DNA from: an uncultured Nitrospiraceae bacterium
GTDB taxonomy: Bacteria; Nitrospirota; Nitrospiria; Nitrospirales; Nitrospiraceae
Assembly: GCA_963846575.1 (NCBI GenBank)
Contig: CAWJWJ010000002.1
Location: 1,152,001-1,216,000, forward strand
Direction: 5' to 3'
DNA: 64,000 bases
Part shown: one piece after another, positions 25,314 through 64,000 of the stretch
Numbering within the stretch: position 1 is the stretch's first letter
Layout of the letters: the number at the start of each line of letters is the position of its first letter
The notes under the pieces: model-generated
What the model was told of the DNA's origin: nothing
Databases searched by the model: none
The model's input: only the letters and a program-made list of their open reading frames with translations
Translations under genes and position numbers: made by a program

Positions 25314-25316
25314 GGC

Positions 25317-44940: not shown

Positions 44941-44950
44941 AAGCGCGGCC

Positions 44951-46337: not shown

Positions 46338-46364
46338 GAGACGCATGAGAACGCCTGATCCACA
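46338..46364 (-). promoter_or_regulatory. ECF-type promoter of the PepSY gene
   Basis: Minus strand TGTGGATC...CGTCTC (TG-N19-CGTC). Confidence 0.6.
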
Positions 46365-46562: not shown

Positions 46563-46742
46563 ATGGACATGAACAGAACCGACCTACCGGTCTCCGGCGA
46601 AGATGTGCGTTGTATCTGCGGCCGGATGACGGCCCGGCTTGAACCCCATGGGCTGGTCATCAAGTGCCAGCGTTGCGGGAATCTGGTCGTGATCACCTTG
46701 TCAACGATCAAGGGTCTGAACAAAGTGCGCAAACTGCCATAA
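46563..46742 (+). CDS. Small Com-like zinc-finger protein (59 aa), absent from the ORF track
   Basis: MDMNRTDLPVSGEDVRCICGRMTARLEPHGLVIKCQRCGNLVVITLSTIKGLNKVRKLP*; pattern RCxCG...IKCxRC. Confidence 0.65.
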   Translation: MDMNRTDLPVSGEDVRCICGRMTARLEPHGLVIKCQRCGNLVVITLSTIKGLNKVRKLP

Positions 46743-46923
46743 TCGCCCGCCATCGTGGCGCGTTGTCGCTCCGTGTGAGGCCGGCAGCGCCTGTCCTTCC
46801 GTTCCTGTTCACACCGCTTGTCCGTGAGACACGAGCCGCCGGCCTCGAGAGGAGGCCGGCGGCTTGCAGCGGCCGAGGAGACATCCGCCGGGATACCCGA
46901 TTGCAGATTGTCCCGCGCGACGC

Positions 46924-49503
46924 TCAATGGAACTCGAACTTGAGCGAGCCGATGGCCGTGAACGGCGCTCCGGTATACACGATTTCACGAAAATTCTGTG
47001 ATCCGGTGAAATACCGTTGATCGAGCACATTCGTGAAGTTCAACGCGGCGAGCAGATTCGTTTTGTTGAACACTTCCTGTTTCCGGTAGTACAGGGCGGC
47101 ATCCATCCGGACGAAGCCGGGCAAATCGAACGGCGCCTGGCAGTTGGCGGGATCCTGGCATTGGAAGATTCCGTTTCGTTTCCCCTGCGCGTACATGCCG
47201 ACTCCGGCGCCGAATCCCTTGACCACTCCTTCCTGGAAGAAATACGTCGTCCAGACACTTCCCTGATGCAGGGCGCTGTTTGGTACGCGGCTTCCTACCT
47301 CAAATAGAAGGTCTTTGGTCACACGCGCGTCGATATACGCGTAATTAGCGATGATGTCCCACCCCGGCAGGATTCGTCCTGCGACGTCGAACTCCACGCC
47401 TTTGCTGCGCTGTTCCCCGGTCGCCACGGAGAAAAAGAACCCGTTCAAGGGATCGGCGGTCAACACGTGTTTCTTGGTGATGTCGAAAACGGCCACCGTG
47501 GATCGCAATCTCCCTTCGAACGCCTGGTATTTGACGCCTCCTTCATAGGACTTGCCGCGCTCCGGGTTAAACGGCGTGCCGGTGATACTTCTCGCTCCGG
47601 CCGTCTGGGGGGAGAATGATTCGGTATAGTTGGCGTAGATGGCGATCGGCGTCCAGGGCTGATAGGTCAGCCCGACGGAAGGACTGAACGCATTATTGGT
47701 TTGGCTGTTGCCGCTCCCGACCGGCGTGAACCCGTCGGGACGGTTGGTGACATTCTGCTCAAAGAGATCGAAACGTCCGCCGAAGTGCAGGTGCAGGTTC
47801 TCCAGGAGATCGACCTGATCGCCGACGTAGGCCCCGATGATGTTGTTCGTTTGAGTGGCGTCGCTGAATTTCGTGAGGGCCGGGTCCAGGAACAGTCTGT
47901 TGGCGGGATTATAGATGTTGATAAAGCTGAAGGCTCCCGGAGTGGTGGTATCGCCGCCGAAATCGCTGAAGCCTCTCGACGACGAGACCTCTCTTCCGAG
48001 TTCGACGCCGAGGATGGTGCGATGTTTGATAGACCCCGTGAAAAAGGAGCCGTGCAATTCGTTTTGCAGATAGTGGCTTTGAACGATCGTAGGAATTTCG
48101 TATCGCGCGAGGTTGAGGATGCCCGCCGCCTCATCGGTAAAAAAATTGGACTCGAGGCTTGAATACCGGCTGCTCCCTGCGGCCGTCCGGAACGCCGTGC
48201 GCCATCTGAACATGTCGTTGAATTGATGAAGCAGCGTGAGGGTGGCTTTGCCCTGTTGGACCTCCGCCCGCCTCGTCGGATCTCCCAGGAAACGGCTGAC
48301 CGGAATCGGCGCGACGCCGGTACCGAGGGCCACCAGTCCTCGATCGATGGGAGATGTATCATGAAGGTATTCGCCCTCGAACCGGAACGTGGTTCGCGAA
48401 CTGATGTCCCATCCGAAGGTCGGGGCCAGGAAGATGCGCTGGGTCTTCACCCCGTCCCGATAACTCTCGGCCGATTCGTACATGCCGTTGAACCGGTAAG
48501 TCAGGGTCTTGCTCTCGTTCAGCGGTCCGCCGACATCGATGACCGGACGATACAGGCCGTAGCTGCCGACGATCATCTCGGCGGAATAGTACCGGCTCTT
48601 CAGCGGAGCTTTCGTGATCTGATTGATGACGCCGCCCGGGTCGGATCGACCATACAGATAGGAGGGAGGGCCCTTCACGACCTCGACGCTCTCGAGGTTG
48701 ATGATATCGCGCTGCGTGCGCGCGCTAAACGTGCTGTCGTCACGAAAGCCGTTTTTGAAGACGTTGAACTCCGAGGCGAAGCCACGGATCATGAAGGTGC
48801 CGCCTTGGCCGCCCTGTGTCGTCGCCTGCGATAGTCCGCTGACATTTCGAAGCGCCTCGCTGAATCGAATGACTTTCTGATCATCGAGGACCTGTCGGGT
48901 CACGACTTCGACGGAGCGTGGCGTATCGTGAATGGGAACGGGGATTCTCGACGCTGTGGAAGAATCCTCGACGGCGTATCCCCGTTCCTCGACTTCCTTG
49001 ACCACGATCTCGGGAACTTTCACCGGCTTGGCGGAGGCCTTGAGCCTGCTGTTCGTCGGAGGCCCCGGTGGGAGAGGATCCGGTTGCTGGTTCATCGGTG
49101 CCGGAAGGGGTGCGATCGGGGCCTGTTCCAATGTCACGGTCCTGGAGTCGGTCAGCCGATAGGTCAGTCCGGTGCCGGCCAGGAGCAAACCGAGCGCTTC
49201 TTCGGGCATGTGACGGCCGATCAGGTCGTTGCTCTTCCTGTCTGCTGTCACCTCCGATGGCACGAGCAGGCGGTAGTTCGCTTGATCGGCGAACGAGGTG
49301 ATCGCAGAGCCCAGCGACTGCGATGGAATATTGAAGTCAACCTGTTCCGTCTGATCTGTGGCCGGGGAGGCCTGTGCGATGCGAAGCGTGCCGGCGGCGG
49401 CCGCATTCGAATACGGCCTGTCGCTCCCGGCCCATGTGCATTCCGCATAGGCCAACAATGCCCACGCGGAAATCGTCATATACAGAAACCCTGATCGTTG
49501 CAT
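46924..49503 (-). CDS. TonB-dependent siderophore receptor/transducer with N-terminal STN signalling domain
   Basis: FNIPSQSL..A STN, plug (TPRSVEVV, IRGF, EVVKGP...YG..PGG.IN), barrel and C-terminal KFEFH. Confidence 0.95.
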   Translation of the reverse strand: MQRSGFLYMTISAWALLAYAECTWAGSDRPYSNAAAAGTLRIAQASPATDQTEQVDFNIPSQSLGSAITSFADQANYRLLVPSEVTADRKSNDLIGRHMPEEALGLLLAGTGLTYRLTDSRTVTLEQAPIAPLPAPMNQQPDPLPPGPPTNSRLKASAKPVKVPEIVVKEVEERGYAVEDSSTASRIPVPIHDTPRSVEVVTRQVLDDQKVIRFSEALRNVSGLSQATTQGGQGGTFMIRGFASEFNVFKNGFRDDSTFSARTQRDIINLESVEVVKGPPSYLYGRSDPGGVINQITKAPLKSRYYSAEMIVGSYGLYRPVIDVGGPLNESKTLTYRFNGMYESAESYRDGVKTQRIFLAPTFGWDISSRTTFRFEGEYLHDTSPIDRGLVALGTGVAPIPVSRFLGDPTRRAEVQQGKATLTLLHQFNDMFRWRTAFRTAAGSSRYSSLESNFFTDEAAGILNLARYEIPTIVQSHYLQNELHGSFFTGSIKHRTILGVELGREVSSSRGFSDFGGDTTTPGAFSFINIYNPANRLFLDPALTKFSDATQTNNIIGAYVGDQVDLLENLHLHFGGRFDLFEQNVTNRPDGFTPVGSGNSQTNNAFSPSVGLTYQPWTPIAIYANYTESFSPQTAGARSITGTPFNPERGKSYEGGVKYQAFEGRLRSTVAVFDITKKHVLTADPLNGFFFSVATGEQRSKGVEFDVAGRILPGWDIIANYAYIDARVTKDLLFEVGSRVPNSALHQGSVWTTYFFQEGVVKGFGAGVGMYAQGKRNGIFQCQDPANCQAPFDLPGFVRMDAALYYRKQEVFNKTNLLAALNFTNVLDQRYFTGSQNFREIVYTGAPFTAIGSLKFEFH

Positions 49504-49578
49504 TATTCCCCCTGAGGTCTTGTCGCCCGGATCATTTCTTTCACTCGCACGTCATTCGGAGCCGGTTCACATCAGGTA

Positions 49579-49605
49579 TAGACGGACAGGGCCAAAAAAC
49601 TTGCA
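49579..49605 (-). promoter_or_regulatory. ECF-type promoter of the TonB-dependent receptor
   Basis: Minus strand TGCAAGTTTT...CGTCTA (TG-N19-CGTC). Confidence 0.65.
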
Positions 49606-49702
49606 GTGAGAAAGCGGCGCAATCGGAGAAAATGCAGCAAAAAAAGAGCATGCAGCAGGGCCGGAGAAACGACGGGGAGCAAGCGGGTGTTTCGGTCGCG
49701 GA

Positions 49703-50680
49703 TCAGTGCAGCAGGACGAGGTAGGGCGACAGAGCCGTTTCATGAATGGCGAGGGTCCGATGAATCGTCCGCAGAGCGGCATCCGGATCAGCCAGATCAA
49801 ATACGCCGGTGACCTTGAGCGGGCGGAGGGCCGGATTCAAAATGACGATGCGTCCATGACGATAGCGATTGAGCTCGTCGACGACCTCCGCCAATGGCCG
49901 GGCTTCGAAGATCAACTTGCCTCGTTGCCATGAGGTTTCCGTTTGCATGTCGATGTGGTGAGCCTCGCCCATGCCCTGCCGGTCGGAGAAGAACACCTGT
50001 TCGCCTTCGTTCAATGTCAGGGAGGCCGTGGTGGTGGTCTCCGGCGCATCGACCCGGACGTTGTGCTCCAGGACCGTCACCGAGATGCGATCCGGATGGA
50101 GGCGGACCGAAAAGACGGTGCCAAGCGCGCGGGTGTGGAGTGACTGGCTATGGACGGTAAACGGGCGATCCGGATCATCTATGACTGTAAAGGACGCCTC
50201 TCCCCGGATGAGCACGATGTCTCGTTGTTCCTCCGAGAAGGCGACGTTGACGGCCGTATTGGTATTCAGTTGGATTCTGCTGCCATCCTCCAGGGTCACC
50301 GTGCGTAGCTCGCCCACCCCGGTCTGATGATCGGCCGTCACCGCTCTGAGCCAGACCCCGACGGATTCCATGAGGAGCGCGCCGGTGATCAGGGCGAGAC
50401 AGGCTGCCAGGGTCCAGGCGGTTCTCCGTGATCGCCGGTGCGACCCTTTCGGTGATGGAGTGGAGTCGGGAGAGGGTACGCGTCCGATGTCCATCCACAG
50501 CGATTCAGCCGTGCGATAGGCCCGGTCATGAGCGGGGCTCCGACGTCGCCACGCGTCACAATCCGCCCGGATACCGTCTGAAGCATGGCCCGAGTGAATC
50601 CGGACCAACCACTCGAGCGCTTCATCCAGGAGGTCATCCGGCGATTCCGGAGTGGTTCGAGGGGAGAAATCTTCGGGCAT
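49703..50680 (-). CDS. fecR: FecR-family anti-sigma factor
   Basis: EALEWLVR...W...SPAH..AY, TM segment, T.VGE.R.VTL.DGS...LNT.T, RALGT.F, WQRG.L.F. Confidence 0.93.
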   Translation of the reverse strand: MPEDFSPRTTPESPDDLLDEALEWLVRIHSGHASDGIRADCDAWRRRSPAHDRAYRTAESLWMDIGRVPSPDSTPSPKGSHRRSRRTAWTLAACLALITGALLMESVGVWLRAVTADHQTGVGELRTVTLEDGSRIQLNTNTAVNVAFSEEQRDIVLIRGEASFTVIDDPDRPFTVHSQSLHTRALGTVFSVRLHPDRISVTVLEHNVRVDAPETTTTASLTLNEGEQVFFSDRQGMGEAHHIDMQTETSWQRGKLIFEARPLAEVVDELNRYRHGRIVILNPALRPLKVTGVFDLADPDAALRTIHRTLAIHETALSPYLVLLH

Positions 50681-50744
50681 CCGTTGTTCCGTCTTATCGG
50701 TTGGCGAACTCGATCGCCTACCCACTAGGGTCGTTCTACCCTAT

Positions 50745-50771
50745 AAGACGGATCAACGGGATCTTTCAACA
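50745..50771 (-). promoter_or_regulatory. ECF-type promoter candidate upstream of fecR
   Basis: Minus strand TGTTGAAAG...CGTCTT (TG-N19-CGTC). Confidence 0.5.
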
Positions 50772-50785
50772 ATGAACGGCTTTGA

Positions 50786-51298
50786 TCATGCCGGATCCTG
50801 CATCCTCGATCGACAATGCTTCAAGGCCTGGATGATGTATTTCGCCACCATACTTTCCGACACACCGAGAGTGCGAGCGATTTCCTTATGGGTTTTGCCG
50901 TCCAGCCGGTTGAGTAGTAATGCGCTCCTGCACTTGACCGACAGCTCTTGCATGGCCGCCTCCAACAGGACGACCCGTTGCTTCGCGTCGAGCGTGTCCT
51001 CGGCGTTGGGGGCGAAACTGGCAGTCTCCTCCTGCAGCGGTTCGACACTCAAGACGCCTCTGCGAGTCCTGGCCTTTCGCAGATAGTCGATGGAGAGATT
51101 GGCTGCCACGCGGAAAAGAAATGCGCGGGGATTCCGGACCGCGATGGTCTCGCCCATGCGCACCAGATGCACATAGGTTTCCTGCGCACAATCAGCCGCC
51201 AGGTCACGGCATCCCAATTTGCGCGTAAAAAAACGGAGCAGGTCCTGGTGATACTCCTGAAATGCGGAGAGACAGGGGAGTGCGTGATCGGTTTCCAT
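50786..51298 (-). CDS. fecI: FecI-like ECF sigma factor
   Basis: LLRFFTRKLG..DLAAD..QE, NPRAFLFRVA.NL.ID, LLNRLDG..HKEIA..LGVS.SMV.KYI.QAL.HC. Confidence 0.92.
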   Translation of the reverse strand: METDHALPCLSAFQEYHQDLLRFFTRKLGCRDLAADCAQETYVHLVRMGETIAVRNPRAFLFRVAANLSIDYLRKARTRRGVLSVEPLQEETASFAPNAEDTLDAKQRVVLLEAAMQELSVKCRSALLLNRLDGKTHKEIARTLGVSESMVAKYIIQALKHCRSRMQDPA

Positions 51299-51310
51299 AA
51301 TGTATAGGTC

Positions 51311-52246
51311 CTATTCCAGGCGATAGCCGATGGGCAGTTGTACAACGATGTCTGGTTGGCCGAGCGGATGCTTCAACGGGATCGGAGAGGTACGCTTGAG
51401 GAGTGCGATGGCGTCGTGATCCAGGGTCGGATGTCCCGAGCTTTCGATCACGGTGACCTCCCCCACATGGCCATCTTCTCTCACGACCGCCTGCAGCAGC
51501 ACGTGGCCTTCCAATCCGTCGGTTTTGGCTGTCTGAGGGTATCGCTTGAGTTGTTCCACCCTCGTGAACAGAACCTGTGCGAGCCACGAATAATCGGCGT
51601 GAATTGTCTGCGTCACGGACGGATCGCGATCCTGTGGAAGGGGGCGGCGGGCGATCCGGACCCTCTCCTCAATCGAAGGTTCGGATGCCAACCGTGATGG
51701 CTCTGCTACGTCCACCGCAGGAGGGGGAATGTCTGCGGAGACCGGCTCATCTGCCGGAACAATCGCGGTCGATTCCGGTGCGCTGTGGCTGGAGTCGGTC
51801 CGGGGACTCGACGGCTCGGTCATGGCCATGTCCCGGGAAGGCGGTGCGTGGTGAGTCGGCTTGCGTGGAAGCAAGGGAGTTCGTTTGGAGGACTCCGCGC
51901 GGGGAGGTTCATCGATCGGCAGGTTGGAAGGTGCCGCCCCCTGTAAGGAACTCGCGAGGATCGGTTCATGAGGCGCCGTTTCAGAAAGCCCGGATGCGGA
52001 TGCGCTCCCTTGAGTGGTCACCAGGCGGCGGGTGGAGGCGGCAGGGACCGGCGTCGGCAGATCGGAACTGATCGGTTCCGGATGGGGGGCGGAGATCAGC
52101 GACACGTCCCATTGAAAGGACCGTTCGCGAGGGAGAACCGTAAAGTCCGCCGCCAGCACCACTGCAGTGCCGACGCCAAGGGCATGCAGCAAGAGGGATA
52201 ACATCCAGCCCCCGATCCTGGGCAGGGCGTCACGATTGACGCTCAT
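51311..52246 (-). CDS. tonB: Second energy transducer TonB
   Basis: N-terminal SLLLH TM, P/S-rich linker and C-terminal KRYP..A...GLEG.V...SSG...LD..A. Confidence 0.85.
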   Translation of the reverse strand: MSVNRDALPRIGGWMLSLLLHALGVGTAVVLAADFTVLPRERSFQWDVSLISAPHPEPISSDLPTPVPAASTRRLVTTQGSASASGLSETAPHEPILASSLQGAAPSNLPIDEPPRAESSKRTPLLPRKPTHHAPPSRDMAMTEPSSPRTDSSHSAPESTAIVPADEPVSADIPPPAVDVAEPSRLASEPSIEERVRIARRPLPQDRDPSVTQTIHADYSWLAQVLFTRVEQLKRYPQTAKTDGLEGHVLLQAVVREDGHVGEVTVIESSGHPTLDHDAIALLKRTSPIPLKHPLGQPDIVVQLPIGYRLE

Positions 52247-52758
52247 CGGAGTCCTACCTGCACAACCTGTTGCCTTCGAAATTCGGAAGGCGAGCAGCCC
52301 ATGACACGTTTGAAGAAGTGACTGAATGCGAAGGAGTCACTGAATCCAAGCCGCTCCGCTATATGAGCAAGCGGGAGGTCATGATCCCGTAACAGGCCGG
52401 TTGCCCTGGTGATCCGGAGAGTTTTGACATAATGCGAGAAACACACACCCATCCGAACGCGGAAGAACTCAGAACAATACTTCTGGGAATAGCCGAGAAA
52501 GTTTGACAGGTCTTTGAGGGTGACTCGTTCTTTCAGATGCTCGGAGAGAAAAGTTTGCAAGCGCTGTTGCATGCTGTCGGAAGAGGTCGCCGGTCCCCCG
52601 GCTTGTGTGCGGGCAAGGGGAGTCGGAATCCTGACCTCATGAATCGGGAGTGGTTCATGCGGTTCGGCCGCACGTGCCGGGCACAATCGCGGGCTGACCT
52701 GCTGTCGGGTATCCGGACGGTCGGTGTGAAGATCCCGGGATAACGCTTGTATCATCAT
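52243..52758 (-). CDS. Short AraC-family regulator (HTH domain only)
   Basis: L..LS..LGYS..Y.S..F...G..F..Y...LRI..A..LL...IA..LGFSD...FS.FFKR..G.SPSEFR. Confidence 0.88.
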   Translation of the reverse strand: MMIQALSRDLHTDRPDTRQQVSPRLCPARAAEPHEPLPIHEVRIPTPLARTQAGGPATSSDSMQQRLQTFLSEHLKERVTLKDLSNFLGYSQKYCSEFFRVRMGVCFSHYVKTLRITRATGLLRDHDLPLAHIAERLGFSDSFAFSHFFKRVMGCSPSEFRRQQVVQVGLR

Positions 52759-53350: not shown

Positions 53351-56300
53351 ATGTGCACAATGTTGAGACAACCACCTTCCGGCAAGCGTCACACCGTGAT
53401 CGATATTCTTCGCGCGCGGGACTCCTCGACCCCCGCGCGCAGAGCCTATACGTATTTGCGTGATGGAGAGACCGACGAACAATGGCTTGACTATCACGAA
53501 CTGGACCGCCGCGCCCGGGGGATCGCGGCCTGGTTGCAATCCTATGGGGCCGCCGGCGAACGCGCCCTCCTGTTGTATCCTCCCGGTCTGGACTACCTTG
53601 CGGCCTTTTTCGGCTGCCTCTATGCCGGAGTGATTGCAGTGCCGGCCTATCCCCCCCAACGGGAACGGGGCATGCCTCGCGTGCTGTCCATACTCCAGGA
53701 TTCACGGGCTGCCTATGCGTTGACCACCCACTCCATCCATCAGGCCATCGGAAGGCTCTCGCCGCGCGACGGTGGACTCGAGCAGCTTGCCGGGCTGCGG
53801 TGGCTGACTACCGATACCGGCGAACCCGGCGCCGAAGACTCCTGGCAGCACCCCGACATCGACGCGGATACCCTGGCATTCCTCCAATACACATCCGGCT
53901 CGACCGGCCAGCCGAAGGGCGTCATGGTCAGCCATGCCAACCTGTTGCATAACCAGCGAATGATTCAGGACGCTTTCGGCCATACGGAACGGGACTGCAT
54001 CGTGGGGTGGTTGCCCCTCTACCATGATATGGGGCTGATCGGGAATGTGCTGCAGCCGCTGTTCCTCGGTGTCCCTTGCGTGCTCATGTCGCCGATACAT
54101 GTCCTGCAAAAGCCGGTGCGTTGGCTGTCCGCGATTTCGCGGTACCGTGCGACCACCAGCGGGGGGCCCAATTTCGCCTTCGATCTCTGCGTGCGCCAGA
54201 TCACGCCCTCACAGCGGGCTTCGTTGGATTTGAGTAGCTGGACGGTGGCGTTTAACGGAGCAGAGCCTGTTCGAGCCGGCACCATCGAACAATTCGCTCG
54301 AACGTTTGCCGGGTGTGGATTCAGGCGGGAGGCGTTTTATCCCTGTTACGGACTGGCCGAGGCAACCCTCCTGGTCGCTGGTGGGACCGCCAACGCTCCA
54401 CCCGTGACGCGAGAGTTCGATCAGTCAGGTCTCAATCTCCATGCCGGGACACAACCGATGGGGACGGGTCATCCCACGCCGGTGCTCGTAGGTTCCGGTG
54501 TCGCCCGGCTCGAACAACTGATTCGCATTGTCCGTCCGGAATCAAGCACCTCCTGCCCGGATGGTCAGGTCGGAGAGATCTGGGTCAGCGGGCCGAGTGT
54601 CGCGCAGGGGTATTGGGGACAGGAACTGGAAACGTGCGCAACCTTTATGGCCAGGCTTGCCGATACCGGAGAGGGCCCGTTTTTACGCACGGGGGATCTG
54701 GGGTTCGTGCACGAAGGCGAACTGTTCGTCACCGGCCGGTTGAAAGATCTCATCATCATTCGTGGGCGCAACCACTATCCGCAGGACATCGAACGTACCG
54801 TGGAGGACAGCCATCCGGCGCTCAGGCCCGGCGGGGGAGCGGCCTTTTCCGTCGTGGAAAGGGACGAGGAACAGTTGGTTGTAGTCCAGGAGATCGAACT
54901 CCGTGCCCGGAACATCAACCATGACGCGATCATGGCTGACATTCGCCGGGCCGTGACGAGACAGCATGAAGTGCCGGTCTTTGCCGTCGTCCTCATCAAG
55001 GCGGGGCATCTGCCCAAGACGTCCAGTGGAAAGGTCCAGCGAAGCCTCTGCCGCACCAGATTCCTCGAACAGGCCTTCGAGGTGATCGGGCAGGCCCTTG
55101 CCCCCGCACCATTACAGGCCGGCGACCTCAGCACATCATTCGAGGCGGTCAGGCGAGGCGGGGTGGCATCGGAAAGGAATCTTGACCAGCTCGTCACGGA
55201 GATCTGGGCGGGGGTATTGAATCAACCGAACATCGGACCACAAGACGATTTCTTCGCGCTGGGCGGCGATTCGCTACGCGGCACGCAGGTGCTGGCCCGC
55301 CTGCGTGAGGAGGGCCGGATCGAGGTGCCCTTGGAGACGCTGTTCGATTTTCCGACTCTGGCGGACTTCGTCAGCCACATCGGGACCAGGACGCCCGCTG
55401 CTCCTGCCGAGGACGGCGTCGCGATGCGGCCCGCTCGGCCGGAGGATCCACAGCCGCTCTCGCGGACTCAGGAGCGCTTCTGGTTTCTCGAGCAACTCTC
55501 ACCTGGCACTCCCGTCAACAATGTTCCCGTCGCGCTGAGGCTGCAGGGGCGACTCGATGTCGAGACCCTTCGCCGTTCCCTGCAGGAAATTTTACGGCGC
55601 CATGACATCCTCCGGGCCCGGTGCATACTCCGTGACGGTCGACCGGCACAGATCATCGCGCCGACTCTCGACCTTTCTCTGGCCGTCGAGGAGTTGATCC
55701 CGATAGGCGAAACGGATCCGGAGCGCCAGCTCCGGCAGGCACTCGATCAAGAGGCGGTCCAGCCGTTCGATCTGATGACGGGGCCTTTGCTCCGGCTCCG
55801 TCTATTCCGGATGGCGGACTGGGATCATGTCTTGTCGCTGACGCTGCATCACATCGTGACAGACGGCTGGTCGATGGGAATCGTCAGTCGCGAGTTGGCC
55901 GCGCTGTACGAGGCCTTTGTGAACCGCCGTGTATCTCCGCTTCCCCCTCTTCCCATCCAGTATCTCGACGTGGTGGCGGGTGAGCGCGAGGATCACCGGG
56001 AAGCGCTCTACAGAAGGCAGATCGAATATTGGCGACAGCGTCTGGAGGATGTTCCCGCCCTATTGAGGCTGCCATACGATCGGGCGCGGCCGGAGGTGCA
56101 GAACTATCGTGGGGCGCGTCACCGCTGGACGGTGGAGGCGGCGCTCGTGCGCAGGCTGCAGAACATCGGGCATCAGCAGCGGGCGACGTTGTTCATGACG
56201 CTGTTGGCGGCCTTCGACGTGCTCTTATCCCGCTACAGCGGCCAGGCGGACTTCTGCGTGGGCACGCCGGTGGCCAATCGAAACCGGATGGACTGGGAGC

Positions 56301-59110
56301 CGCTGGTCGGCTGCTTCGTCAACACCGTCGCTCTTCGTGCCGATCTGTCGGGCAATCCTTCCTTCACCGCCTTCCTCGCGCAAGTCCGGGCGACCGTACT
56401 GGGCGCACAGGCCCATCAGGAGGTTCCGTTTGAACGGGTCGTCGATGACCTACGGGTCGCGCGAGACCTGGGGCATACGCCGCTTTTTCAAGTGATGTTC
56501 CTGTTGGAGGACCGTCTCTCGGACCTGCCATCGTTCGGATCTCTATCGACCGGCAGGATGGAGGTGAACACCCGGACCTCGGTGTTCGATCTCACCGTGG
56601 AAATGGTCCTCGGTGCCGACGGCGGCCTGACCGCGGTGTTTGAATACAGTATCGAGTTGTTCGATCGCGACAGGATCGTGCGCCTCGCCGGACACTTTCA
56701 TACGCTGCTGAATGAAATCGCCACCGCCCCGGAGTCGCGGATTGGCGATCTGACGCTGCTCACGGCGCATGAAACCCGTCAGGTTCTCGTTGAGTGCAAC
56801 AACACCCGCGCGTCCTATCCGGAAGAGTCATGCCTGCATCAATTGATGGAGGACAGGGTGTCCCGGACCCCGGACGCCGTGGCCCTGTCCTGCGAGGGGC
56901 GGTCCTATACCTACGCCGAGCTCAATCGCAGGTCGAATCAACTCGCGCGCTATCTCCGTGCGCACAAGGCCGGTCCGGAAACTCCGGTCGCCCTCTGCGT
57001 CGAACGATCGCTCGAGATGGTGGTCGGCCTATGGGCCACTCTCAAGGCCGGTGCGGCCTATGTGCCCATCGATCCTGCCTATCCACGATCCCGACAGGTC
57101 GCGATTCTCGAGGACGTGCAACCGAAATTGGTCCTGACGCAACAGCAGTTCGCGAATGATCTGTCACGAAGCGGCGCTCCCGTTTGTGCGATGGACTCCG
57201 GATGGGCCGCGGCAGCCGGGTATCCTGACGGCAATCTGCCCAACCTTTCCCGTCCCGATAATCTGGCCTACCTCCTGTACACCTCGGGAACGACCGGGCA
57301 ACCCAAGGGGACCGGCATTTCGCACCGCGCACTGGTCAACCACAGCATTGCCATCGCGGCACGGTATGGTCTTGTCCCGACCGATCGGGTGCTCCAATTC
57401 GCTTCGGTCAGTTTCGACGTCGCGGCGGAGGAATGTTTTCCGTCATGGCTCGCGGGGGCGACGGTGGTGGTGCGGCCCAATGCGCCTCTGCCGGCATTTT
57501 CTGATTTTCACGCCTTTCTCCGCGAGCAGCGGCTCACGGTCCTGAACCTGCCGACGCCTTACTGGGCCGGATGGGTGGACGAGATCGACAGGACCGGCCT
57601 GGCGATCCCGGCGGAGCTCAGGCTGATCGTGGTGGGGAGCGAAAAGGCCTTGCCTGAGAGCGTCATGAGGTGGCAGCGGGTTGCGGGGCCCCAGATCGGG
57701 TGGTGCAATTCGTATGGACCGACGGAAGCCACCATCACCGCGAGTTGTTATGTCCCGGAGCCGGACATGGATTGGACTCGCGCCCTCACTGTCCCGATCG
57801 GCCGGCCGATCGCGAATGTTGAACTCTACCTGCTGGATTCCCATCTCCGGCCCGTTCCCCTGGGAGTGCCGGGAGAACTCTATATCGGCGGAGCCGGCCT
57901 CGCTCGCGGGTACCATCGGTTGCCGGCGTTGACCGCCGGGAGATTCGTTCCCCATCCGTTCAGTTCACGTCCGGGAGAGCGCTTGTATCGAACCGGGGAC
58001 CGCGCCCGCCGACGGCCGGAGGGTGAGGTCGAGTTTCTGGGCCGCGTCGACGAGCAGGTGAAGGTTCGCGGCCATCGTATTGAACTCGGGGACATCGAGT
58101 GCCATGCGCGCCAACATCCGGACGTGAAGGAGTGCCGGGTGTTCCTGGAAGAGGGCGCTCTCCCGGAGTGGGCTGCACTCCTCAGCGGCGTGAGCCTGCA
58201 GGACCAGGAACGGATGCTCCGGGACGTCGAAAGCGTGACGGCGGCGGAGGCCCAATGGCTTCACCGAGTGGAATCGGATGCGGAGGAACGGAGGAAGACG
58301 GTGATTCAGAGAAAACCGGAGTTCGATGTGTACCTGAAAATTCATCACGGGGAGTTTGTGACTCCGCCGAAACAGAATCAGCGCAATTGGCTGCTGCGGC
58401 GGGCCCTCGACGAATTTTCAGATGATCTCGTGGCGCTCGACGCGATCTCAAAACGGTTGGTTTCCGGCTCCGAGCGGGTGGGCATCGAACAGGGGTGGAC
58501 GGGGAGCAGGGCCGATTATACACCGACCGAGCTCATCATCGAAGGACAGCAGGTGATGCAGGATTGGGAAGCGCCGTTGATGAAGGCGATGGCTGACATC
58601 GCCACCGAATCCCAGGGCGACGTGCTCGAGGTCGGATTCGGAATGGGCATCTCGGCCTCCTACATTCAGGCTGGACGACCGCGTTCCCACACCATCATTG
58701 AGTGCAACCAGGATGTCATGCAGGCGTTCGTCGCATGGTCCGCCGGATACCCCGATCGCGACATCCGGCTCGTCCAGGGCCGTTGGCAGGATGTGGTCGA
58801 TGGACTGGGCCGGTTCGACAGCGTGTTTTTCGATACCTACCCGGCCAGTGAAGCTGAATTCGAAGAATCGGTCATCAACAGTATCAACTTTGCCGAAGCG
58901 TTTGTGCCTGCTGCCGCCGGATTGCTGCGTCCGGGCGGGGTGTTTACGTATTACACGAATGAAATCGACTCCTTCAGCAGGCGGCATCAACGATTCCTGT
59001 TCCAACACTTCAGCTCCTTCACCCTCAGCATCGTGCGATCACTGCTACCGCCGGATGATTGCCACTATTGGTGGGCCGATTCGATGGCGGTGGTCAAGGC
59101 GGTGAAATGA
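53351..59110 (+). CDS. NRPS: FAAL - ACP - C - A(core, A1-A8) - GAMT/RMT2-like methyltransferase
   Basis: FLQYTSGSTGQPKGV (FAAL), FFALGGDSL (ACP), HHIVTDGWS (C), YTSGTTGQPKG, YGPTE, YRTGD, GRVDEQVKVRGHRIELG (A), then VMQDWE..LM...VLEVGFGMGIS...HTIIEC...FFDTYP (MT). Confidence 0.93.
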   Translation: MCTMLRQPPSGKRHTVIDILRARDSSTPARRAYTYLRDGETDEQWLDYHELDRRARGIAAWLQSYGAAGERALLLYPPGLDYLAAFFGCLYAGVIAVPAYPPQRERGMPRVLSILQDSRAAYALTTHSIHQAIGRLSPRDGGLEQLAGLRWLTTDTGEPGAEDSWQHPDIDADTLAFLQYTSGSTGQPKGVMVSHANLLHNQRMIQDAFGHTERDCIVGWLPLYHDMGLIGNVLQPLFLGVPCVLMSPIHVLQKPVRWLSAISRYRATTSGGPNFAFDLCVRQITPSQRASLDLSSWTVAFNGAEPVRAGTIEQFARTFAGCGFRREAFYPCYGLAEATLLVAGGTANAPPVTREFDQSGLNLHAGTQPMGTGHPTPVLVGSGVARLEQLIRIVRPESSTSCPDGQVGEIWVSGPSVAQGYWGQELETCATFMARLADTGEGPFLRTGDLGFVHEGELFVTGRLKDLIIIRGRNHYPQDIERTVEDSHPALRPGGGAAFSVVERDEEQLVVVQEIELRARNINHDAIMADIRRAVTRQHEVPVFAVVLIKAGHLPKTSSGKVQRSLCRTRFLEQAFEVIGQALAPAPLQAGDLSTSFEAVRRGGVASERNLDQLVTEIWAGVLNQPNIGPQDDFFALGGDSLRGTQVLARLREEGRIEVPLETLFDFPTLADFVSHIGTRTPAAPAEDGVAMRPARPEDPQPLSRTQERFWFLEQLSPGTPVNNVPVALRLQGRLDVETLRRSLQEILRRHDILRARCILRDGRPAQIIAPTLDLSLAVEELIPIGETDPERQLRQALDQEAVQPFDLMTGPLLRLRLFRMADWDHVLSLTLHHIVTDGWSMGIVSRELAALYEAFVNRRVSPLPPLPIQYLDVVAGEREDHREALYRRQIEYWRQRLEDVPALLRLPYDRARPEVQNYRGARHRWTVEAALVRRLQNIGHQQRATLFMTLLAAFDVLLSRYSGQADFCVGTPVANRNRMDWEPLVGCFVNTVALRADLSGNPSFTAFLAQVRATVLGAQAHQEVPFERVVDDLRVARDLGHTPLFQVMFLLEDRLSDLPSFGSLSTGRMEVNTRTSVFDLTVEMVLGADGGLTAVFEYSIELFDRDRIVRLAGHFHTLLNEIATAPESRIGDLTLLTAHETRQVLVECNNTRASYPEESCLHQLMEDRVSRTPDAVALSCEGRSYTYAELNRRSNQLARYLRAHKAGPETPVALCVERSLEMVVGLWATLKAGAAYVPIDPAYPRSRQVAILEDVQPKLVLTQQQFANDLSRSGAPVCAMDSGWAAAAGYPDGNLPNLSRPDNLAYLLYTSGTTGQPKGTGISHRALVNHSIAIAARYGLVPTDRVLQFASVSFDVAAEECFPSWLAGATVVVRPNAPLPAFSDFHAFLREQRLTVLNLPTPYWAGWVDEIDRTGLAIPAELRLIVVGSEKALPESVMRWQRVAGPQIGWCNSYGPTEATITASCYVPEPDMDWTRALTVPIGRPIANVELYLLDSHLRPVPLGVPGELYIGGAGLARGYHRLPALTAGRFVPHPFSSRPGERLYRTGDRARRRPEGEVEFLGRVDEQVKVRGHRIELGDIECHARQHPDVKECRVFLEEGALPEWAALLSGVSLQDQERMLRDVESVTAAEAQWLHRVESDAEERRKTVIQRKPEFDVYLKIHHGEFVTPPKQNQRNWLLRRALDEFSDDLVALDAISKRLVSGSERVGIEQGWTGSRADYTPTELIIEGQQVMQDWEAPLMKAMADIATESQGDVLEVGFGMGISASYIQAGRPRSHTIIECNQDVMQAFVAWSAGYPDRDIRLVQGRWQDVVDGLGRFDSVFFDTYPASEAEFEESVINSINFAEAFVPAAAGLLRPGGVFTYYTNEIDSFSRRHQRFLFQHFSSFTLSIVRSLLPPDDCHYWWADSMAVVKAVK

Positions 59111-59111: not shown

Positions 59112-59762
59112 ATGGCGACCATTCTTGAACGCATCGACCGGCTTTCCGAGGCCCAACGCGCCTTGCTCCGGCTCCGGCTGGGAGGGACAGAACGGGCGAC
59201 GGCGGGCGAATCGCGCCTGGTCGGGTACATCGTCCCGCGCGGGGAGCGGAGGGACCTCGCTCCTGACCTGCGTGAATTTCTCCGCGAGCGTCTTCCGGAT
59301 TACATGGTGCCCGGTGCCTGGATCGTCATCGACTCGTTCCCCATGACCTCCCGGGGGAAGGTGGATCGAGCCGCCTTGCAGGGGATGGCCCGGTCGGCCT
59401 GGCCCGCGGAGTCCCGCGGAGGAGTCCCTCGAAACGATTGCGAGCGGGCCATTGCGGACATCTGGAAAGAGGTGCTCGGCCTGCCCGTCATGGGGCTGCA
59501 AGACAACTTTTTCGATTTGGGGGGCCACTCCCTGCTGCTGCCGAAAGTCCTCGCCAGGGTGCGCGAGCTGGCGCAGCGGGAGGTTTCGATGGTGGATCTG
59601 TTCCGCTATCCGACGGTGCAGGCACTTGCCGCCTATGTGGCGGGTGAATCGCGACCCGTCGAGGAGGGCGACAGCGGTGATCACGCGAAGGGCAAGCGGG
59701 AGGCCGGGATCCGCCGGATGACACAACGGCGGCGGAGACAGGCGGCGTTGAGGAGCGAATGA
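59112..59762 (+). CDS. Stand-alone A-subdomain (A9-A10) + PCP protein
   Basis: RLVGYIV, LPDYMVP (A9), PMTSRGKVDR (A10 Lys), DNFFDLGGHSLL (PCP Ser) and an Arg-rich C-terminal tail. Confidence 0.9.
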   Translation: MATILERIDRLSEAQRALLRLRLGGTERATAGESRLVGYIVPRGERRDLAPDLREFLRERLPDYMVPGAWIVIDSFPMTSRGKVDRAALQGMARSAWPAESRGGVPRNDCERAIADIWKEVLGLPVMGLQDNFFDLGGHSLLLPKVLARVRELAQREVSMVDLFRYPTVQALAAYVAGESRPVEEGDSGDHAKGKREAGIRRMTQRRRRQAALRSE

Positions 59763-62700
59763 CGAACACAGCGGAACAGGGTGACGGGAGTCAGGCCGGT
59801 GGAGGGTTGGACATCGCCGTAGTCGGGATGGCCGGGCGGTTTCCCGGCGCGCGGAATCTGGAGTCGTTCTGGCAGAACCTCCGGGACGGCATCGAGTCGG
59901 TCTCCACGCTCAGCCGGGAAGACCTGCTGGAGTCCGGGGTGGATGAGCAGGTCCTCGATCGGCCGAATTATGTGAGGGCCCGGGCGTTGCTCGATGACGT
60001 GGATCTTTTTGACGCCAGGTTGTTCAACATGACCCCGAACGAAGCCGCCAGCATGGATCCGCAGCAACGTCTGTTGCTTGAGTGTGCCTGGGAGACGCTC
60101 GAGCAGGCGGGTTATGACCCGGAGCAGTACGGCGGGACGATCGGCGTTTATGCGGGATCGAGCAGTAGCGGCTATCTATTCAACCTGTTTCCCCGCCGGA
60201 CGCTTCTCCAGTCGGCAGCCGACATGTCGGCGATGCTGGGGGTGGAAAAGGATGCCCTCTCGACGCGCGTCTCGTACAAATTGAATCTGGAAGGGCCGAG
60301 TCTGGCCGTGCAAACGGCCTGCTCGACGTCCCTGGTCGCAGTCCATCTGGCCTGCCAGGGCCTCTTGAGCGGTGAGTGCGACATGGCCTTGGCAGGCGGC
60401 GTGTCGGTCACGGTGCCGCAGAAAGTCGGCTATCTCTACCAGGAGGGCGGCATCGTCTCGCCGGATGGTCATTGCCGCGCCTTTGATGCCGACGCTCAAG
60501 GAACCGTCGGAGGAAGCGGCGTCGGACTCGTCCTGCTGAAGCGACGGCAGGAAGCGGAAGCCGACGGCGATCAGGTGCTGGCCATCATCAAGGGCTCCGC
60601 CATCAATAACGACGGCGCGGCAAAGGTCGGCTATACGGCTCCCCGGATCGAAGGGCAGGCCAAGGTCATCAAGGCCGCGCATCTGGCGGCCGGTGTGACG
60701 CCGGAATCGATCTCCTATGTGGAGGCCCATGGGACAGGGACTCCGATGGGCGATCCCATTGAAGTCGCGGCCTTGACGCAGGCCTTTCGGGCCTCCACGG
60801 ACCGCAGCGGTTTTTGTGCGCTCGGCTCCGTGAAGACGAATATCGGTCATCTGGATGCCGCCGCCGGAATTGCCGGACTCATCAAGACCATCCTGGCACT
60901 CTCCCACCGGCAGATCCCGGCCAGTTTGCATTACGTGCGATCGAATCCCGCGATCGATTTTGCACAGACTCCGTTTTATGTGAATGCGGCACTGAAGGCA
61001 TGGCCACGCGGTGATAACCTGCGACGGGCCGGCGTCAGTTCGTTCGGATTGGGCGGAACGAACGCGCATGTGGTGCTCGAAGAAGCCTCTCCTGCCGGCA
61101 GGGCTCAGTCCCCGGCGCGGGATTCCGGCTCTCAGCTCCTGGTGTTGTCTGCAGGGTCGGAGAGGGCCTTGAGCCAAGCGACGGACCGTCTCGCCGCGCA
61201 TCTTGGCAACCATCCGGATCTTTCCCTGGCCGACGTCGCGCACACGCTTCAGGCGGGCCGCAAAGCACTTCCCTACAGGCGGTGGGTGGTGGCAACCCGG
61301 ACGGCTCAGGCCGCGGAGTTGCTTGCCCGGCCGGGGCTTGCGGGTGCCACGTCCGGCCCTGTCGGCGGCGGGCGGCGGGCGGCGTTCATGTTTTCCGGAC
61401 AGGGCGCGCAATATCCGGGCATGGGGCAGGCGCTGTATGCGGAGCAGTCGGTGTTCCGCGAGCAGGTGGATCTGTGCGCCTCTCTGTTGCAGCGACAACT
61501 GGGGCGTGACATCCGGTCGATTCTCTTCGCGAACCGCCCGGAGGACCAGGACCTCATTCACCAAACGGTGCTGACTCAGCCGGCGTTGTTCGTCTTTGAG
61601 TATGCTCTTGCCCGGCTGTGGATGAGCTGGGGAGTTATCCCCTGCGCCATGATCGGACATAGCCTGGGGGAATACGTAGCCGCTTGTTTGTCAGGAGTCT
61701 TTTCCCTGGAAGACGCGTTGGCGGTCGTGGCTCGGCGGGGGCGGCTCATGCAGGACACGGTTCCGGGAACCATGCTGGCCGTTCCACTCGCCGAGTCGGA
61801 AGTAGCGCCGTTCCTTCGCGCGGGAGTCGACCTCGCGGCAGTGAATGCTCCCGCCCAATGCGTGTTGTCCGGCCATGAGGAGTCCCTCGCCGCGCTGGAT
61901 CAGGAGTTGACGGCCCGGGGCATCAAGAGCCGTCGGCTGCGGACATCGCACGCGTTTCATTCCTCCACGATGGATTCCGTGTTGAAACCGTTTGAATCGT
62001 TTCTTGCCGGCCTCACGATGCATCCCCCTCGAATCCCCTGGGTTTCAAATGTGACCGCCGGGTGGATTCACCGTGATCAGGCGGTGGACCCGCGCTACTG
62101 GGCACGTCATCTGCGCTCGACGGTCCGGTTTTCGGATGGCATCAAGACCCTGCTGGAGCAGGGCGGGCCGATCCTGCTCGAAGTCGGACCAGGCCGCACG
62201 TTGCAGCACCTGGCCCGGCGGCACGCGGGGCAGACCGGACTGTCCGCGGTGGCCTCCTTGAATGGAGCCGGACCGGCCAGCTCCGGGCAGCCTGAGATGT
62301 CCGCCCTGCTGACGACGCTCGGATCACTCTGGGGAGCCGGTGTCTGCCCCGATTGGAACGGTTTGTACGCGGGAGAACCGCGCCGCCGGGTGCCGCTTCC
62401 GACCTATCCGTTCGAACGGCAGCGTTATTGGGTGGAACCTGATTCATCTCATGCAGGCCGGAAGACGGAGCGGTCCGACAGACGCCTCGACATGTCGAGA
62501 TGGGCCTATCAGCCCTCATGGAAGCGATCAGTGTTAGGGGGAGGCAGCCACGCCCGTCCGCAGGAACAGTGGCTTGTCTTCGTGGAGGAACCGCGCGTCG
62601 GGATGGCCTTGGTGAATCACCTGAATACGCTGGGGCACCAGGTCACGACCGTGCTGGCGGGACAGGCCTTCGAACGGCGCGACGGCGATACCTACCTCGT

Positions 62701-64000
62701 TCGCGCCGATTCTCGGGAAGACCATGATCGGCTCCTGCGGGATCTGAAGACGCGGGGACGGCTACCCTCCAACATCGTGCAGGCCTGGACGATCGGCGAA
62801 GAAACTCCAGCCGCCCCTGCGACGGTGCAATTCAACGGGGCTCAAGAAAAAGGATTTTTTCATCTGCTGCTTCTTGCACAGGTGTTCGGACGGCGGCGCG
62901 GAGAAGGGTGTTCGATCCTGGTGCTGTCTCAGGGCCTTCACGATGTCACCGGTCGTGAGCGGTTGCGCCCGGAACAGGCGACTCTGCTGGCGGCCTGCCG
63001 TGTGATTCCCCAGGAATACCCCCGCCTGACCTGCCGCCTGCTCGACCTCGACGACCACGACGTCGCGCACACCCTCTCGGAGGCATCCTGCCACCGGCTG
63101 ACGGCTGAGGTCGGTGCTCCGGCAGGCGAGGCAATCGTCGCCTATCGGGGACCGCACCGCTGGGTGCAGACATTCGAACCACTGCCTCTGCCGGAAGGGA
63201 AACCCATGTCCGGCCTGTTGCGAGAAGGAGGCGTTTATCTGATCACGGGAGGGCTTGGCGGGGTCGGACTCGCCCTGGCGGACTACCTGATCCGCACCCT
63301 GCAGGCCCGCGTCATTCTGACCAGCCGGTCGCTGCCGAATGGTGAGCAACAAGAGGTGCTAGCCGGGCTCGAACGACTGGGCGGGAAGGTCTTGCCGCTT
63401 CAAGCCGATGTCGCCGATCTCCCTCAGATGCGTGCGGCGATTGCGGAAGCCGGGCAACGATTCGGGTCCATCCATGGGGTATTCCATGCCGCTGCGGTTG
63501 CCGGCGGCGGCCTCATTGATCGAACCACTCCGGAATCCGTCCGGGATGAATTCCGTCCGAAGGTCGCGGGGGCCTTGGTGCTGGAAGAGGCGCTACGGGA
63601 GGCCCCTCCGGAGTTCGTGCTGTTCTGTTCCTCGTTGACGGCCGTGGTGGGTGGGATCGGGCAGGTCGCCTCTTGCGCGGCCAATGCTTTCCTGGACGCC
63701 ATGGCGCATGCCAGCACGAGCGCACGCATGCCTGTCCTGTCGGTGAATTTCGACCGTTGGTCTCAGGTCGGCATGGCGGTGCAGGCCGAGGCTCGCATGA
63801 AGGCCCTGGGATTGAGCGACGAGGCGTTGGATGGGATGAGCCGTCGGGAGGGACAGGACGTTGTCCATCGGATCCTTCAGGGAGCGGCCCTGCCGCAGGT
63901 CGTGGTCTCCATTCGAGAGTTGTCGACCGTTGCGACCTCGGTCACTCAACTGGCCTTGGCTCAATTTCACGGGCCTGATCAGACGGCGGGACACGATGTG
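59759..64000 (+). CDS. Type I PKS module KS-AT-KR (hybrid NRPS/PKS-type KS), 3'-truncated by the window; not listed in the ORF track
   Basis: ATG overlaps the previous stop. DIAVVGMAGRFPGA, DPQQRL, VQTACSTSL, EAHGTGT, KTNIGHL, GQGAQY, GHSLG, SHAFHS (malonyl-type AT), ITGGLGGVG; KR active site GQVASCAAN is in the same frame. Confidence 0.92.
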   Translation, partial: MTNTAEQGDGSQAGGGLDIAVVGMAGRFPGARNLESFWQNLRDGIESVSTLSREDLLESGVDEQVLDRPNYVRARALLDDVDLFDARLFNMTPNEAASMDPQQRLLLECAWETLEQAGYDPEQYGGTIGVYAGSSSSGYLFNLFPRRTLLQSAADMSAMLGVEKDALSTRVSYKLNLEGPSLAVQTACSTSLVAVHLACQGLLSGECDMALAGGVSVTVPQKVGYLYQEGGIVSPDGHCRAFDADAQGTVGGSGVGLVLLKRRQEAEADGDQVLAIIKGSAINNDGAAKVGYTAPRIEGQAKVIKAAHLAAGVTPESISYVEAHGTGTPMGDPIEVAALTQAFRASTDRSGFCALGSVKTNIGHLDAAAGIAGLIKTILALSHRQIPASLHYVRSNPAIDFAQTPFYVNAALKAWPRGDNLRRAGVSSFGLGGTNAHVVLEEASPAGRAQSPARDSGSQLLVLSAGSERALSQATDRLAAHLGNHPDLSLADVAHTLQAGRKALPYRRWVVATRTAQAAELLARPGLAGATSGPVGGGRRAAFMFSGQGAQYPGMGQALYAEQSVFREQVDLCASLLQRQLGRDIRSILFANRPEDQDLIHQTVLTQPALFVFEYALARLWMSWGVIPCAMIGHSLGEYVAACLSGVFSLEDALAVVARRGRLMQDTVPGTMLAVPLAESEVAPFLRAGVDLAAVNAPAQCVLSGHEESLAALDQELTARGIKSRRLRTSHAFHSSTMDSVLKPFESFLAGLTMHPPRIPWVSNVTAGWIHRDQAVDPRYWARHLRSTVRFSDGIKTLLEQGGPILLEVGPGRTLQHLARRHAGQTGLSAVASLNGAGPASSGQPEMSALLTTLGSLWGAGVCPDWNGLYAGEPRRRVPLPTYPFERQRYWVEPDSSHAGRKTERSDRRLDMSRWAYQPSWKRSVLGGGSHARPQEQWLVFVEEPRVGMALVNHLNTLGHQVTTVLAGQAFERRDGDTYLVRADSREDHDRLLRDLKTRGRLPSNIVQAWTIGEETPAAPATVQFNGAQEKGFFHLLLLAQVFGRRRGEGCSILVLSQGLHDVTGRERLRPEQATLLAACRVIPQEYPRLTCRLLDLDDHDVAHTLSEASCHRLTAEVGAPAGEAIVAYRGPHRWVQTFEPLPLPEGKPMSGLLREGGVYLITGGLGGVGLALADYLIRTLQARVILTSRSLPNGEQQEVLAGLERLGGKVLPLQADVADLPQMRAAIAEAGQRFGSIHGVFHAAAVAGGGLIDRTTPESVRDEFRPKVAGALVLEEALREAPPEFVLFCSSLTAVVGGIGQVASCAANAFLDAMAHASTSARMPVLSVNFDRWSQVGMAVQAEARMKALGLSDEALDGMSRREGQDVVHRILQGAALPQVVVSIRELSTVATSVTQLALAQFHGPDQTAGHDV

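Follow-up and report, generated by a model that had tools for sequence, protein, structure and literature searches.

A guanidinoacetate methyltransferase-family domain at the cut of a split, putatively arginine-activating adenylation domain in a predicted siderophore pathway of a Nitrospiraceae bacterium

The elements that meet in the system described here are each already known: adenylation (A) domains of nonribosomal peptide synthetases (NRPSs) that are interrupted by a methyltransferase, A domains split over two proteins, guanidinoacetate methyltransferase (GAMT)-like enzymes that methylate the δ-nitrogen (Nδ) of arginine, and siderophores started by an acyl-arginine that a polyketide synthase (PKS) extends. 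The published interrupting methyltransferases act on backbone nitrogen or on side-chain oxygen or sulfur, with the histidine of corramycin as the proposed case of a side-chain nitrogen. The split A domain of the corallorazine proteins Crz1 and Crz2 is active only when both proteins are mixed (PMC11342130), and in vitro the blasticidin-cluster methyltransferase BlsL, which prefers arginine in acylated form, transfers the methyl group to Nδ of acylated β-arginine (PMC5572114). Here we analyse a stretch of 64,000 nucleotides from an uncultured Nitrospiraceae bacterium (assembly GCA_963846575.1, contig CAWJWJ010000002.1, positions 1,152,001 to 1,216,000; hereafter the window), in which an NRPS starter gene ends in a GAMT-family methyltransferase domain (MT) placed where an A domain is cut in two. 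The combination of an interrupted and split A domain, a GAMT-type guanidino insert and an acyl-arginine-PKS siderophore appears to be undescribed. We consider it probable that acyl-Nδ-methyl-arginine, methylated by the MT on carrier-bound arginine and extended with malonate, starts a predicted siderophore. An earlier note on this DNA had proposed that acyl-N-methyl-arginine is made for PKS extension in a siderophore; the proposal is supported independently by enzyme family, substrate pocket, relatives and genomic context, and it stays a prediction.

The starter gene (53351..59110, plus strand, as are all features of the module; open reading frame (ORF) with domain matches) encodes 1919 aa in the order fatty acyl-AMP ligase (FAAL), acyl carrier protein (ACP), condensation (C) domain, A core through motif A8, linker and MT. 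The FAAL domain (aa 14-577, 53390..55081) was assigned from PF23024 and from NCBIfam fatty-acid--AMP ligase models, which are its best family-specific NCBIfam matches and score below their whole-protein cut-offs. It is followed by the ACP with its GGDSL motif (55190..55381; PF00550), a C domain with an intact HHIVTDG motif (55445..56785; PF00668) and the A core (56849..58141). An acidic helical linker (58148..58291), which resembles NRPS C-terminal docking helices in profile matches, is helical in the structure model and would form one docking half, leads to an N-terminal extension of the MT (58292..58495), a β-hairpin and long helix that alignment and model place outside the GAMT-alignable part. 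The GAMT-family core (58496..59110; PF27704) closes the gene, with the stop codon at its end. The nearest relatives are found in Nitrospira genomes, at 76-86% identity.

The note had read the MT, from six motifs, as GAMT-like and different from the usual NRPS N-methyltransferase, and both points are borne out. All six motifs lie in the starter ORF: VMQDWEAPLM (58553-58582), VLEVGFGMGIS (58622-58654), HTIIECN (58688-58708), GRWQDV (58778-58795), FFDTYP (58826-58843) and PPDDCHYW (59048-59071). When the single MT sequence was compared with 177,635 distinct PDB sequences, only GAMT chains were matched at meaningful E values (rat GAMT, 6e-27; next match, about 0.08), and a profile of 23 MT sequences matched GAMT at 1.4e-39 in an alignment extending to the C-terminal PPxDCxY motif of GAMT. 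With the AlphaFold model (predicted local distance difference test (pLDDT) score 88.7), Foldseek placed GAMT at ranks 1-5 (E 1.4e-17, template modelling (TM) score 0.78 on target) and spermidine synthases next at 1e-9; the solved NRPS N-methyltransferase of TioS (5wmm), which is present in the PDB library, was not among the matches listed for the MT. In the ESM Atlas the family is named PF27704 GuanidinoAc_N-MeTrfase, and a precomputed PF27704 assignment exists for the protein as well as for its homologues. The C-terminal MT region has no match in either NCBIfam or the local Pfam copy. Exact regular expressions for the 28 motif patterns of the interrupting methyltransferase (M) types I-VI (PMC8341866, Table 1) found only the generic S-adenosylmethionine (SAM) motif in the whole insert; run on the core regions alone of 69 family members, they gave no type-specific motif. 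A conventional NRPS N-, O- or S-methyltransferase is ruled out by the GAMT-only sequence matches, the Foldseek order and the missing type-specific motifs. The MT belongs to the GAMT-like family PF27704. It is not a GAMT proper (EC 2.1.1.2), being fused to an NRPS instead of free-standing and shortened in the region of GAMT Leu170/Thr171.

The residues that matter in GAMT are retained. E1740 (58568) corresponds to GAMT Glu45, which binds the guanidinium, and D1828 (58832) to GAMT Asp134. Asp134 is the proposed catalytic base of GAMT (PMC12471008). All 69 family cores, a set that excludes three truncated or frameshifted loci, retain the equivalents of rat GAMT Glu45, Met49, Glu89, Trp116, Asp134 and Tyr221. 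From this kinship, the MT likely methylates the internal (Nδ) guanidino nitrogen.

Relatives outside NRPSs point to arginine as well. A tblastn search of 72,556 plasmids with the MT gave 3 matches (E 7e-9 to 6e-8, 35-37% identity over 38-52% of the query). One of the two examined lies in a blasticidin-type cluster (blsE, blsF, blsG) and the other beside β-methylarginine genes with blsE and blsF (blasticidin/arginomycin clusters), and both proteins retain the Glu/Asp pair. A much closer free-standing member (54% identity) comes from Allokutzneria. In its neighbourhood an amino-acid oxidase/monooxygenase, which matches 3we0 at E 3e-227, is accompanied by an amide hydrolase, a CoA ligase and a PKS, a gene set that we take to be a route to guanidinobutyrate starters. 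Free-standing members beside modular PKSs were seen in L055 (7383-14831; with monooxygenase, amide hydrolase and CoA ligase) and L068 (11220-15274; with CoA ligase and a VinK-like acyltransferase), and others adjoin modular PKS genes in L050 and L052; these four loci are candidates for N-methylguanidino polyketides. In L051 (10782-16903) and L064 (5356-8715) free-standing members lie in YcaO/cyanobactin-like clusters for peptides that are made by the ribosome and modified after translation, a context that suggests arginine methylation of ribosomal peptides. The ESM Atlas clusters ranked 2-3 for positions 58289-59107 of the window are GAMT-family proteins mostly of tailed phages (Uroviricota, few with taxonomy; score 0.93).

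In an alignment to GrsA (1amu), the specificity positions of the A core (57416-57739) are D1356 (57416), V1357, E1360 (57428), N1399, V1427, G1429, S1454, I1462 and T1463, giving the code DVENVGSIT that the note had also derived. When the pocket region was compared with solved structures, the best match was ApnA A1 (E 5e-24), followed by CmnG (1e-13), poly-lysine synthase (9e-11) and GrsA (2e-10). ApnA A1 has been solved with arginine and with tyrosine, and CmnG with capreomycidine (PMC10510592). The pocket contains Glu239, and its nearest solved counterpart, ApnA A1, binds arginine. An acidic residue at 239 or 278 occurs in 41 of 46 complete MT-linked A codes, and the five misses are Streptomyces cores that also lack Asp235; for the 77 other adenylating domains encoded in these loci the count is 19. 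Among 119 longer homologues a code was obtained for 104, and 101 of these, over 49 different codes, are acidic at 239 or 278; the set of 46 and the set of 104 overlap and contain many related sequences, so that no P value is given for the enrichment. We conclude that the A domain probably accepts a basic residue, most likely arginine. The atypical GSE in place of GGE, which the note had pointed out, does include Ser at 302 (57638), and it is a trait of the A subfamily unrelated to methylation: Ser, Asn or Thr is usual at this position in DVE-type A domains without any MT. Because MT-free A domains of the same subfamily carry GSE too, the motif is uninformative on methylation, and a special adaptation to methylation is ruled out.

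It is noticeable that the A domain does not end where the starter protein ends. After A8 (58055-58099) the 1919-aa ORF has neither A9 nor A10, and the tenth code residue that the note had assigned, Lys517 of A10, is absent from it. The next ORF, a partner of 216 aa (59112..59762) that starts two bases past the stop codon, holds a docking-type N-terminal helix (aa 1-26), A9 (LPDYMVP, 59292-59312), A10 (RGKVDR, 59352-59369) with the catalytic lysine (59358), and a peptidyl carrier protein (PCP; 59448-59639). The module spans two genes, which the note had not seen, and the two proteins together hold one complete A domain that likely activates L-arginine. The same cut, A-MT on one gene and A9A10 with the thiolation (T) domain on the next, is found in 37 of 71 related loci; the rest are 10 actinobacterial three-part loci (A core, MT and remainder separate), 20 with an MT without attached A core, and 4 that are truncated or frameshifted. 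All 17 closest loci have a stop codon, one base and a start codon at the junction. A 251-base contig of sequencing run X5 crosses the junction without gaps; contigs of four DNA runs cover the window patchily. A frameshift as the cause of the split is ruled out by the 37 loci with the conserved cut, the uniform junction and the spanning contig.

Mapping against P0219, an MT-free and unsplit orthologue (FAAL-ACP-C-A-PCP; 69% identical, same code type), places the MT at the A8/A9 site. A second MT-free unsplit orthologue with the same code type occurs in G028, of the same genus; since such orthologues exist, the MT is an accessory insert at this site. Among the best 119 longer homologues (the protein itself excluded), 117 end in the MT and two, P0241 and P0242, are contiguous in the order A8-MT-MT-A9-T. 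A profile of the linker between A8 and MT, run against 119 intact NRPS proteins, gave five weak matches, all at C-termini (E 3e-4 to 0.025), and a profile of the partner N-terminus gave twelve, all at N-termini (E 4e-7 to 0.025), from which we infer that an ordinary docking helix pair has been reused within the A subdomain. Complex prediction of the two halves gave a weak pass (0.57 versus 0.00 for the best control), with no less than 61% contact agreement between runs and a partner pLDDT of 66 or more. Of 78 solved pairs 51 reach the pass mark, as do 2 of 108 mismatched ones; the pass came at 0.60 or below for 5 of these 78 and for each of the 4 mismatches that pass. Split-domain halves can pass through likeness to solved A domains.

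Other arrangements of the MT were observed in the family. Tandem GAMT-type domains in one module lie inside the A domain in P0241 and P0242 and are terminal in P0269 and P0270, where they possibly carry out double methylation. In the ten three-part actinobacterial loci (L054, L056, L059, L060, L062, L063, L065, L066, L067, L071; about 5000-11500), an A-T-C-A core protein is followed by a separate MT and then by A9A10-T or T; their upstream A code is DIEDAGMIT-like, and the MT-linked code is DSWD(I/V)GLIG in five and degenerate without Asp235 in five. The MTs of these loci form one clade (Shimodaira-Hasegawa-like approximate likelihood ratio test, SH-aLRT, 100). Fused, tripartite and free-standing forms are intermixed in the MT tree, a quick tree without L070, L072 and L073 that has long branches at the outgroup and gives no order of events.

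The genes around the module are those of a siderophore cluster. The PKS gene (59759..64000 in the window, plus strand, ending at 64327) encodes ketosynthase (KS), acyltransferase (AT) and ketoreductase (KR) domains and, past the window, an ACP; the AT motifs GHSLG and HAFH are presumably of the malonyl type. Upstream of the starter gene lies a divergent iron-uptake block (44383..52758) assigned by Pfam, with a Fur-family regulator, a PepSY-TM protein, a TonB-dependent siderophore receptor (TIGR01783 above its cut-off), FecR, an extracytoplasmic function (ECF) sigma factor, TonB and AraC. Beyond the window, 3' of the PKS, are a cyclic-peptide ABC exporter, a diaminobutyrate (DAB) transaminase, a penicillin-amidase-family acylase, a type II thioesterase and two TauD genes, and eight further NRPS modules that end in a thioesterase (TE). 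The codes of these modules are DIWELTADD, DVWHISLID, DIWELTADD, DVWHISLID, DLTKIGHVG, DILQLGLVW, DSALIAEVW and DVWHMSLID, which we take to mean Dab-Ser-Dab-Ser-Asp-Gly-His-Ser. With the TonB-dependent receptor, FecI/FecR, the TauD hydroxylases, the cyclic-peptide exporter and the DAB transaminase as siderophore-cluster markers, the product is predicted to be a siderophore. A Fur-box scan gave one site with 6 mismatches and a promoter scan did not rise above chance; we count neither as evidence. Relatives have the same starter and a varying peptide. A second cluster type in the genus (L013, L017, G022 and G037, downstream of the partner) has the same starter, but its PKS lacks a KR and is joined to NRPS modules, and its peptide differs; G022 carries a second module with the code DVENVGAVT, unsplit and MT-free.

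In the pathway that we propose, FAAL would place a fatty acid on the ACP, and the two halves of the A domain would join through the docking-type helix pair, the partner supplying Lys517 and the PCP in trans. Arginine would then be adenylated and loaded. Methyl transfer by the MT from SAM to Nδ, with Asp1828 as the base, would either precede or follow the acylation step of the C domain. The PKS would add two carbons, giving a 4-acylamino-7-(N-methylguanidino)-3-hydroxyheptanoyl unit in relatives and a 3-oxo unit here if the altered KR residue described below is real. The eight NRPS modules would extend the chain (putatively with Dab-Ser-Dab-Ser-Asp-Gly-His-Ser), the two TauD enzymes, likely β-hydroxylases, would make iron ligands, and the ABC exporter would export the product, which the N-terminal nucleophile (Ntn) acylase possibly delipidates. 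Ntn acylases delipidate other siderophores (PMC13592322). Given this precedent and the penicillin-amidase-family acylase in the cluster, the lipid may be temporary, and the final product need not be the lipopeptide that the note suggested.

Several observations weigh against this pathway, the first of them in the cluster itself. All 14 close relatives that have a KR keep its catalytic tyrosine; here the residue is serine (TCT, 63671-63673; PKS aa 1305), which is either a one-base error or the sign of a dead KR that leaves a 3-oxo group. The first downstream NRPS is frameshifted in its second module by an extra base in a short C run (G000:C2:~1229725; L001 ~18725), and the equivalent gene in G001 is open. 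Both lesions would be expected if the module works in relatives while the cluster of this genome is decaying and yields no product or a truncated one, an explanation that is compatible with the proposed enzyme type. We regard it as doubtful, though worth keeping in mind: the frameshift is a single extra base, the 48-kb cluster is otherwise open, no key residue of the A or MT domain is altered, and both lesions could be assembly errors.

The position of the methyl group is open to a second objection. Identity of the MT to GAMT is about 30%, and the fold kinship leaves the methylated nitrogen unfixed. In GAMT, Leu170 and Thr171 form the carboxylate loop; the region after the last core strand that holds it is shortened and diverged in the MT, and the orientation of the substrate could therefore differ. 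The proteins at the BlsL position are about 35% identical over half the length or less and sit on long tree branches. Moreover, the family has several substrates, given that the A cores adjoining the MT look degenerate in five Streptomyces cases and that two free-standing members lie in YcaO clusters. Arginine may thus be the substrate with the methyl group on a terminal nitrogen (Nω), or methylation may concern free arginine or follow PKS extension. Besides the substrate-side loop unlike that of GAMT, the extra 68-aa N-terminal extension of the family would suit these alternatives, as would the tandem MTs, found in an unsplit A domain in 2 of 119 homologues and terminally in two more, which hint at double methylation, something one Nδ cannot take. 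They nevertheless seem unlikely. The internal nitrogen is the target of both characterized relatives, GAMT and BlsL, and the geometry of the Glu45/Asp134 pair does not vary. The MT-free orthologues share the A code, which means that the pocket has not been adapted to an amino acid methylated beforehand.

The remaining objections to Nδ-methylation of arginine concern the residue that is loaded. ApnA A1, the best pocket match, takes tyrosine as well as arginine, and its code in our alignment (DVESIGVIA) is identical to DVENVGSIT at 5 of 9 positions. Among the 104 MT-linked codes, 3 have no acidic residue at 239 or 278, one of which we assume to be Gln-like. The literature search, with most subscription papers outside its reach, turned up neither a paper containing DVENVGSIT nor a domain assigned by experiment that has precisely this code. 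Poly-lysine synthase (Pls), the third-best pocket match, shares Glu239 in its lysine-activating domain, so that the code alone cannot tell arginine from lysine; the note's reading of the code as one for a basic substrate such as arginine is supported as far as the basic-residue pocket goes, but lysine and ornithine are not separable from arginine by the code. The A domain might accordingly load lysine, ornithine or another basic residue and the MT methylate its side-chain amine. This we consider improbable, as the two better pocket matches bind guanidino substrates, the MT keeps both acidic residues of GAMT, and the examined bacterial relatives of the MT lie in arginine-derived pathways. Finally, that the split is an assembly artefact or the MT an inactive passenger would agree with at least one probable indel elsewhere in the assembly and with MT-free orthologues, whose existence means that the MT is dispensable for the module, but it is very improbable, the artefact being largely refuted by the junction shared by the 17 closest loci and the independent contig across it, and the passenger being at odds with MTs that are 76-86% identical across the closest loci and invariant in their catalytic residues.

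Two other parts of the window yielded side observations. On the minus strand at 52792-52919, just upstream of the AraC gene, there is a sigma-70-like site (10/12) with a terminator-like hairpin, at counts near chance. Pfam matches at 21003-27300 indicate a 4Fe-4S protein, an FAD/NAD oxidoreductase, a hydrogenase small-subunit-like protein and a NiFe hydrogenase large subunit, and pyruvate phosphate dikinase domains follow the hydrogenase genes in separate ORFs (26395-27300, 27429-28364), possibly because of another frameshift.

Within the genus, the MT turned up in 16 of 39 genomes and, among the 29 of high quality, in 14; at least 308 longer proteins carry it or a relative. In our judgement the case is evenly balanced for a seventh class of NRPS-embedded methyltransferase, with the MT as its type example: a GAMT derivative that acts on carrier-bound arginine and methylates its guanidino group. 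It would be a cassette plugged in at the A8/A9 site (also a free gene between the halves, fused, or tandem), and an ordinary docking helix pair would re-join the cut A subdomain. If so, the class would mark hundreds of uncharacterized pathways in Nitrospirota, Acidobacteriota, Cyanobacteriota, Myxococcota, Pseudomonadota and Actinomycetota, and nitrite oxidizers would have an undescribed Nδ-methylarginine siderophore. The analysis predicts the first residue for a siderophore family of nitrite-oxidizing bacteria, and a guanidino-methylating type would supply a new building block for NRPS prediction and engineering, in a domain that standard annotation (NCBIfam, local Pfam copy) overlooks. The natural cut with docking-type helices and the MT-free, unsplit orthologues of the same code form a test pair for plugging in tailoring domains.

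The searched literature, with most subscription papers outside reach and supplements that may bear on the matter, contained no GAMT-type domain in an NRPS, and no such enzyme is described in the available portions of PMC13505331, PMC8627960, PMC12371840, PMC13372681 (with supplements), PMC13592322 and PMC12904278. Compared with GAMT itself (PDB 1xcj, 3orh; PF27704), the MT shares the fold, the SAM motifs, Glu45, Met49, Glu89, Trp116, Asp134 and Tyr221 and the C-terminal PPxDCxY, and it differs in its overall sequence (about 30% identity), in 68 extra N-terminal aa, in the shortened loop after the Leu170/Thr171 region and in its fusion to an NRPS. Its substrate would be carrier-bound arginine, whereas that of GAMT is free guanidinoacetate. 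BlsL (PMC5572114) is likewise a bacterial GAMT-like enzyme, methylating Nδ of acylated arginine, but it is free-standing and acts on a diffusible nucleoside; the comparison was made through the genes at its cluster position (two of the three plasmid matches, not annotated as BlsL), at about 35% identity over partial length. The interrupted A domains of types M I-VI (PMC8341866) also have a class I methyltransferase between A8 and A9, an arrangement that is contiguous in P0241 and P0242 of the present family; the MT lacks their type-specific motifs, and its A domain is nearly always split. As the terms Arg and guanidin do not occur in the available text of PMC8341866, no arginine or guanidino type is among those described there.

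For the split, corallorazine Crz1/Crz2 (PMC11342130) offers the closest arrangement, with the A core, a methyltransferase and the stop codon on one gene and A9/A10 with T on the next, but its methyltransferase is a conventional backbone N-methyltransferase acting on glycine, and the word docking is absent from the main text. Corramycin module 3 (PMC10099666), compared with the MT through its published description, involves another residue and an epimerization (E) domain, and shares with it a proposed NRPS-embedded side-chain N-methyltransferase, for histidine, in a FAAL-started assembly line. With respect to the product, variochelin (PMC10999976) has an unmethylated arginine extended with methylmalonate, in contrast to the AT here, which looks malonyl-specific, and to the peptide codes, which are presumably Dab/Ser/Asp/Gly/His-like. 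The likeness, drawn from published descriptions, lies in a fatty acyl-arginine extended by a PKS to a γ-amino-β-hydroxy acid, in TauD hydroxylation and in the accompanying iron-uptake genes.

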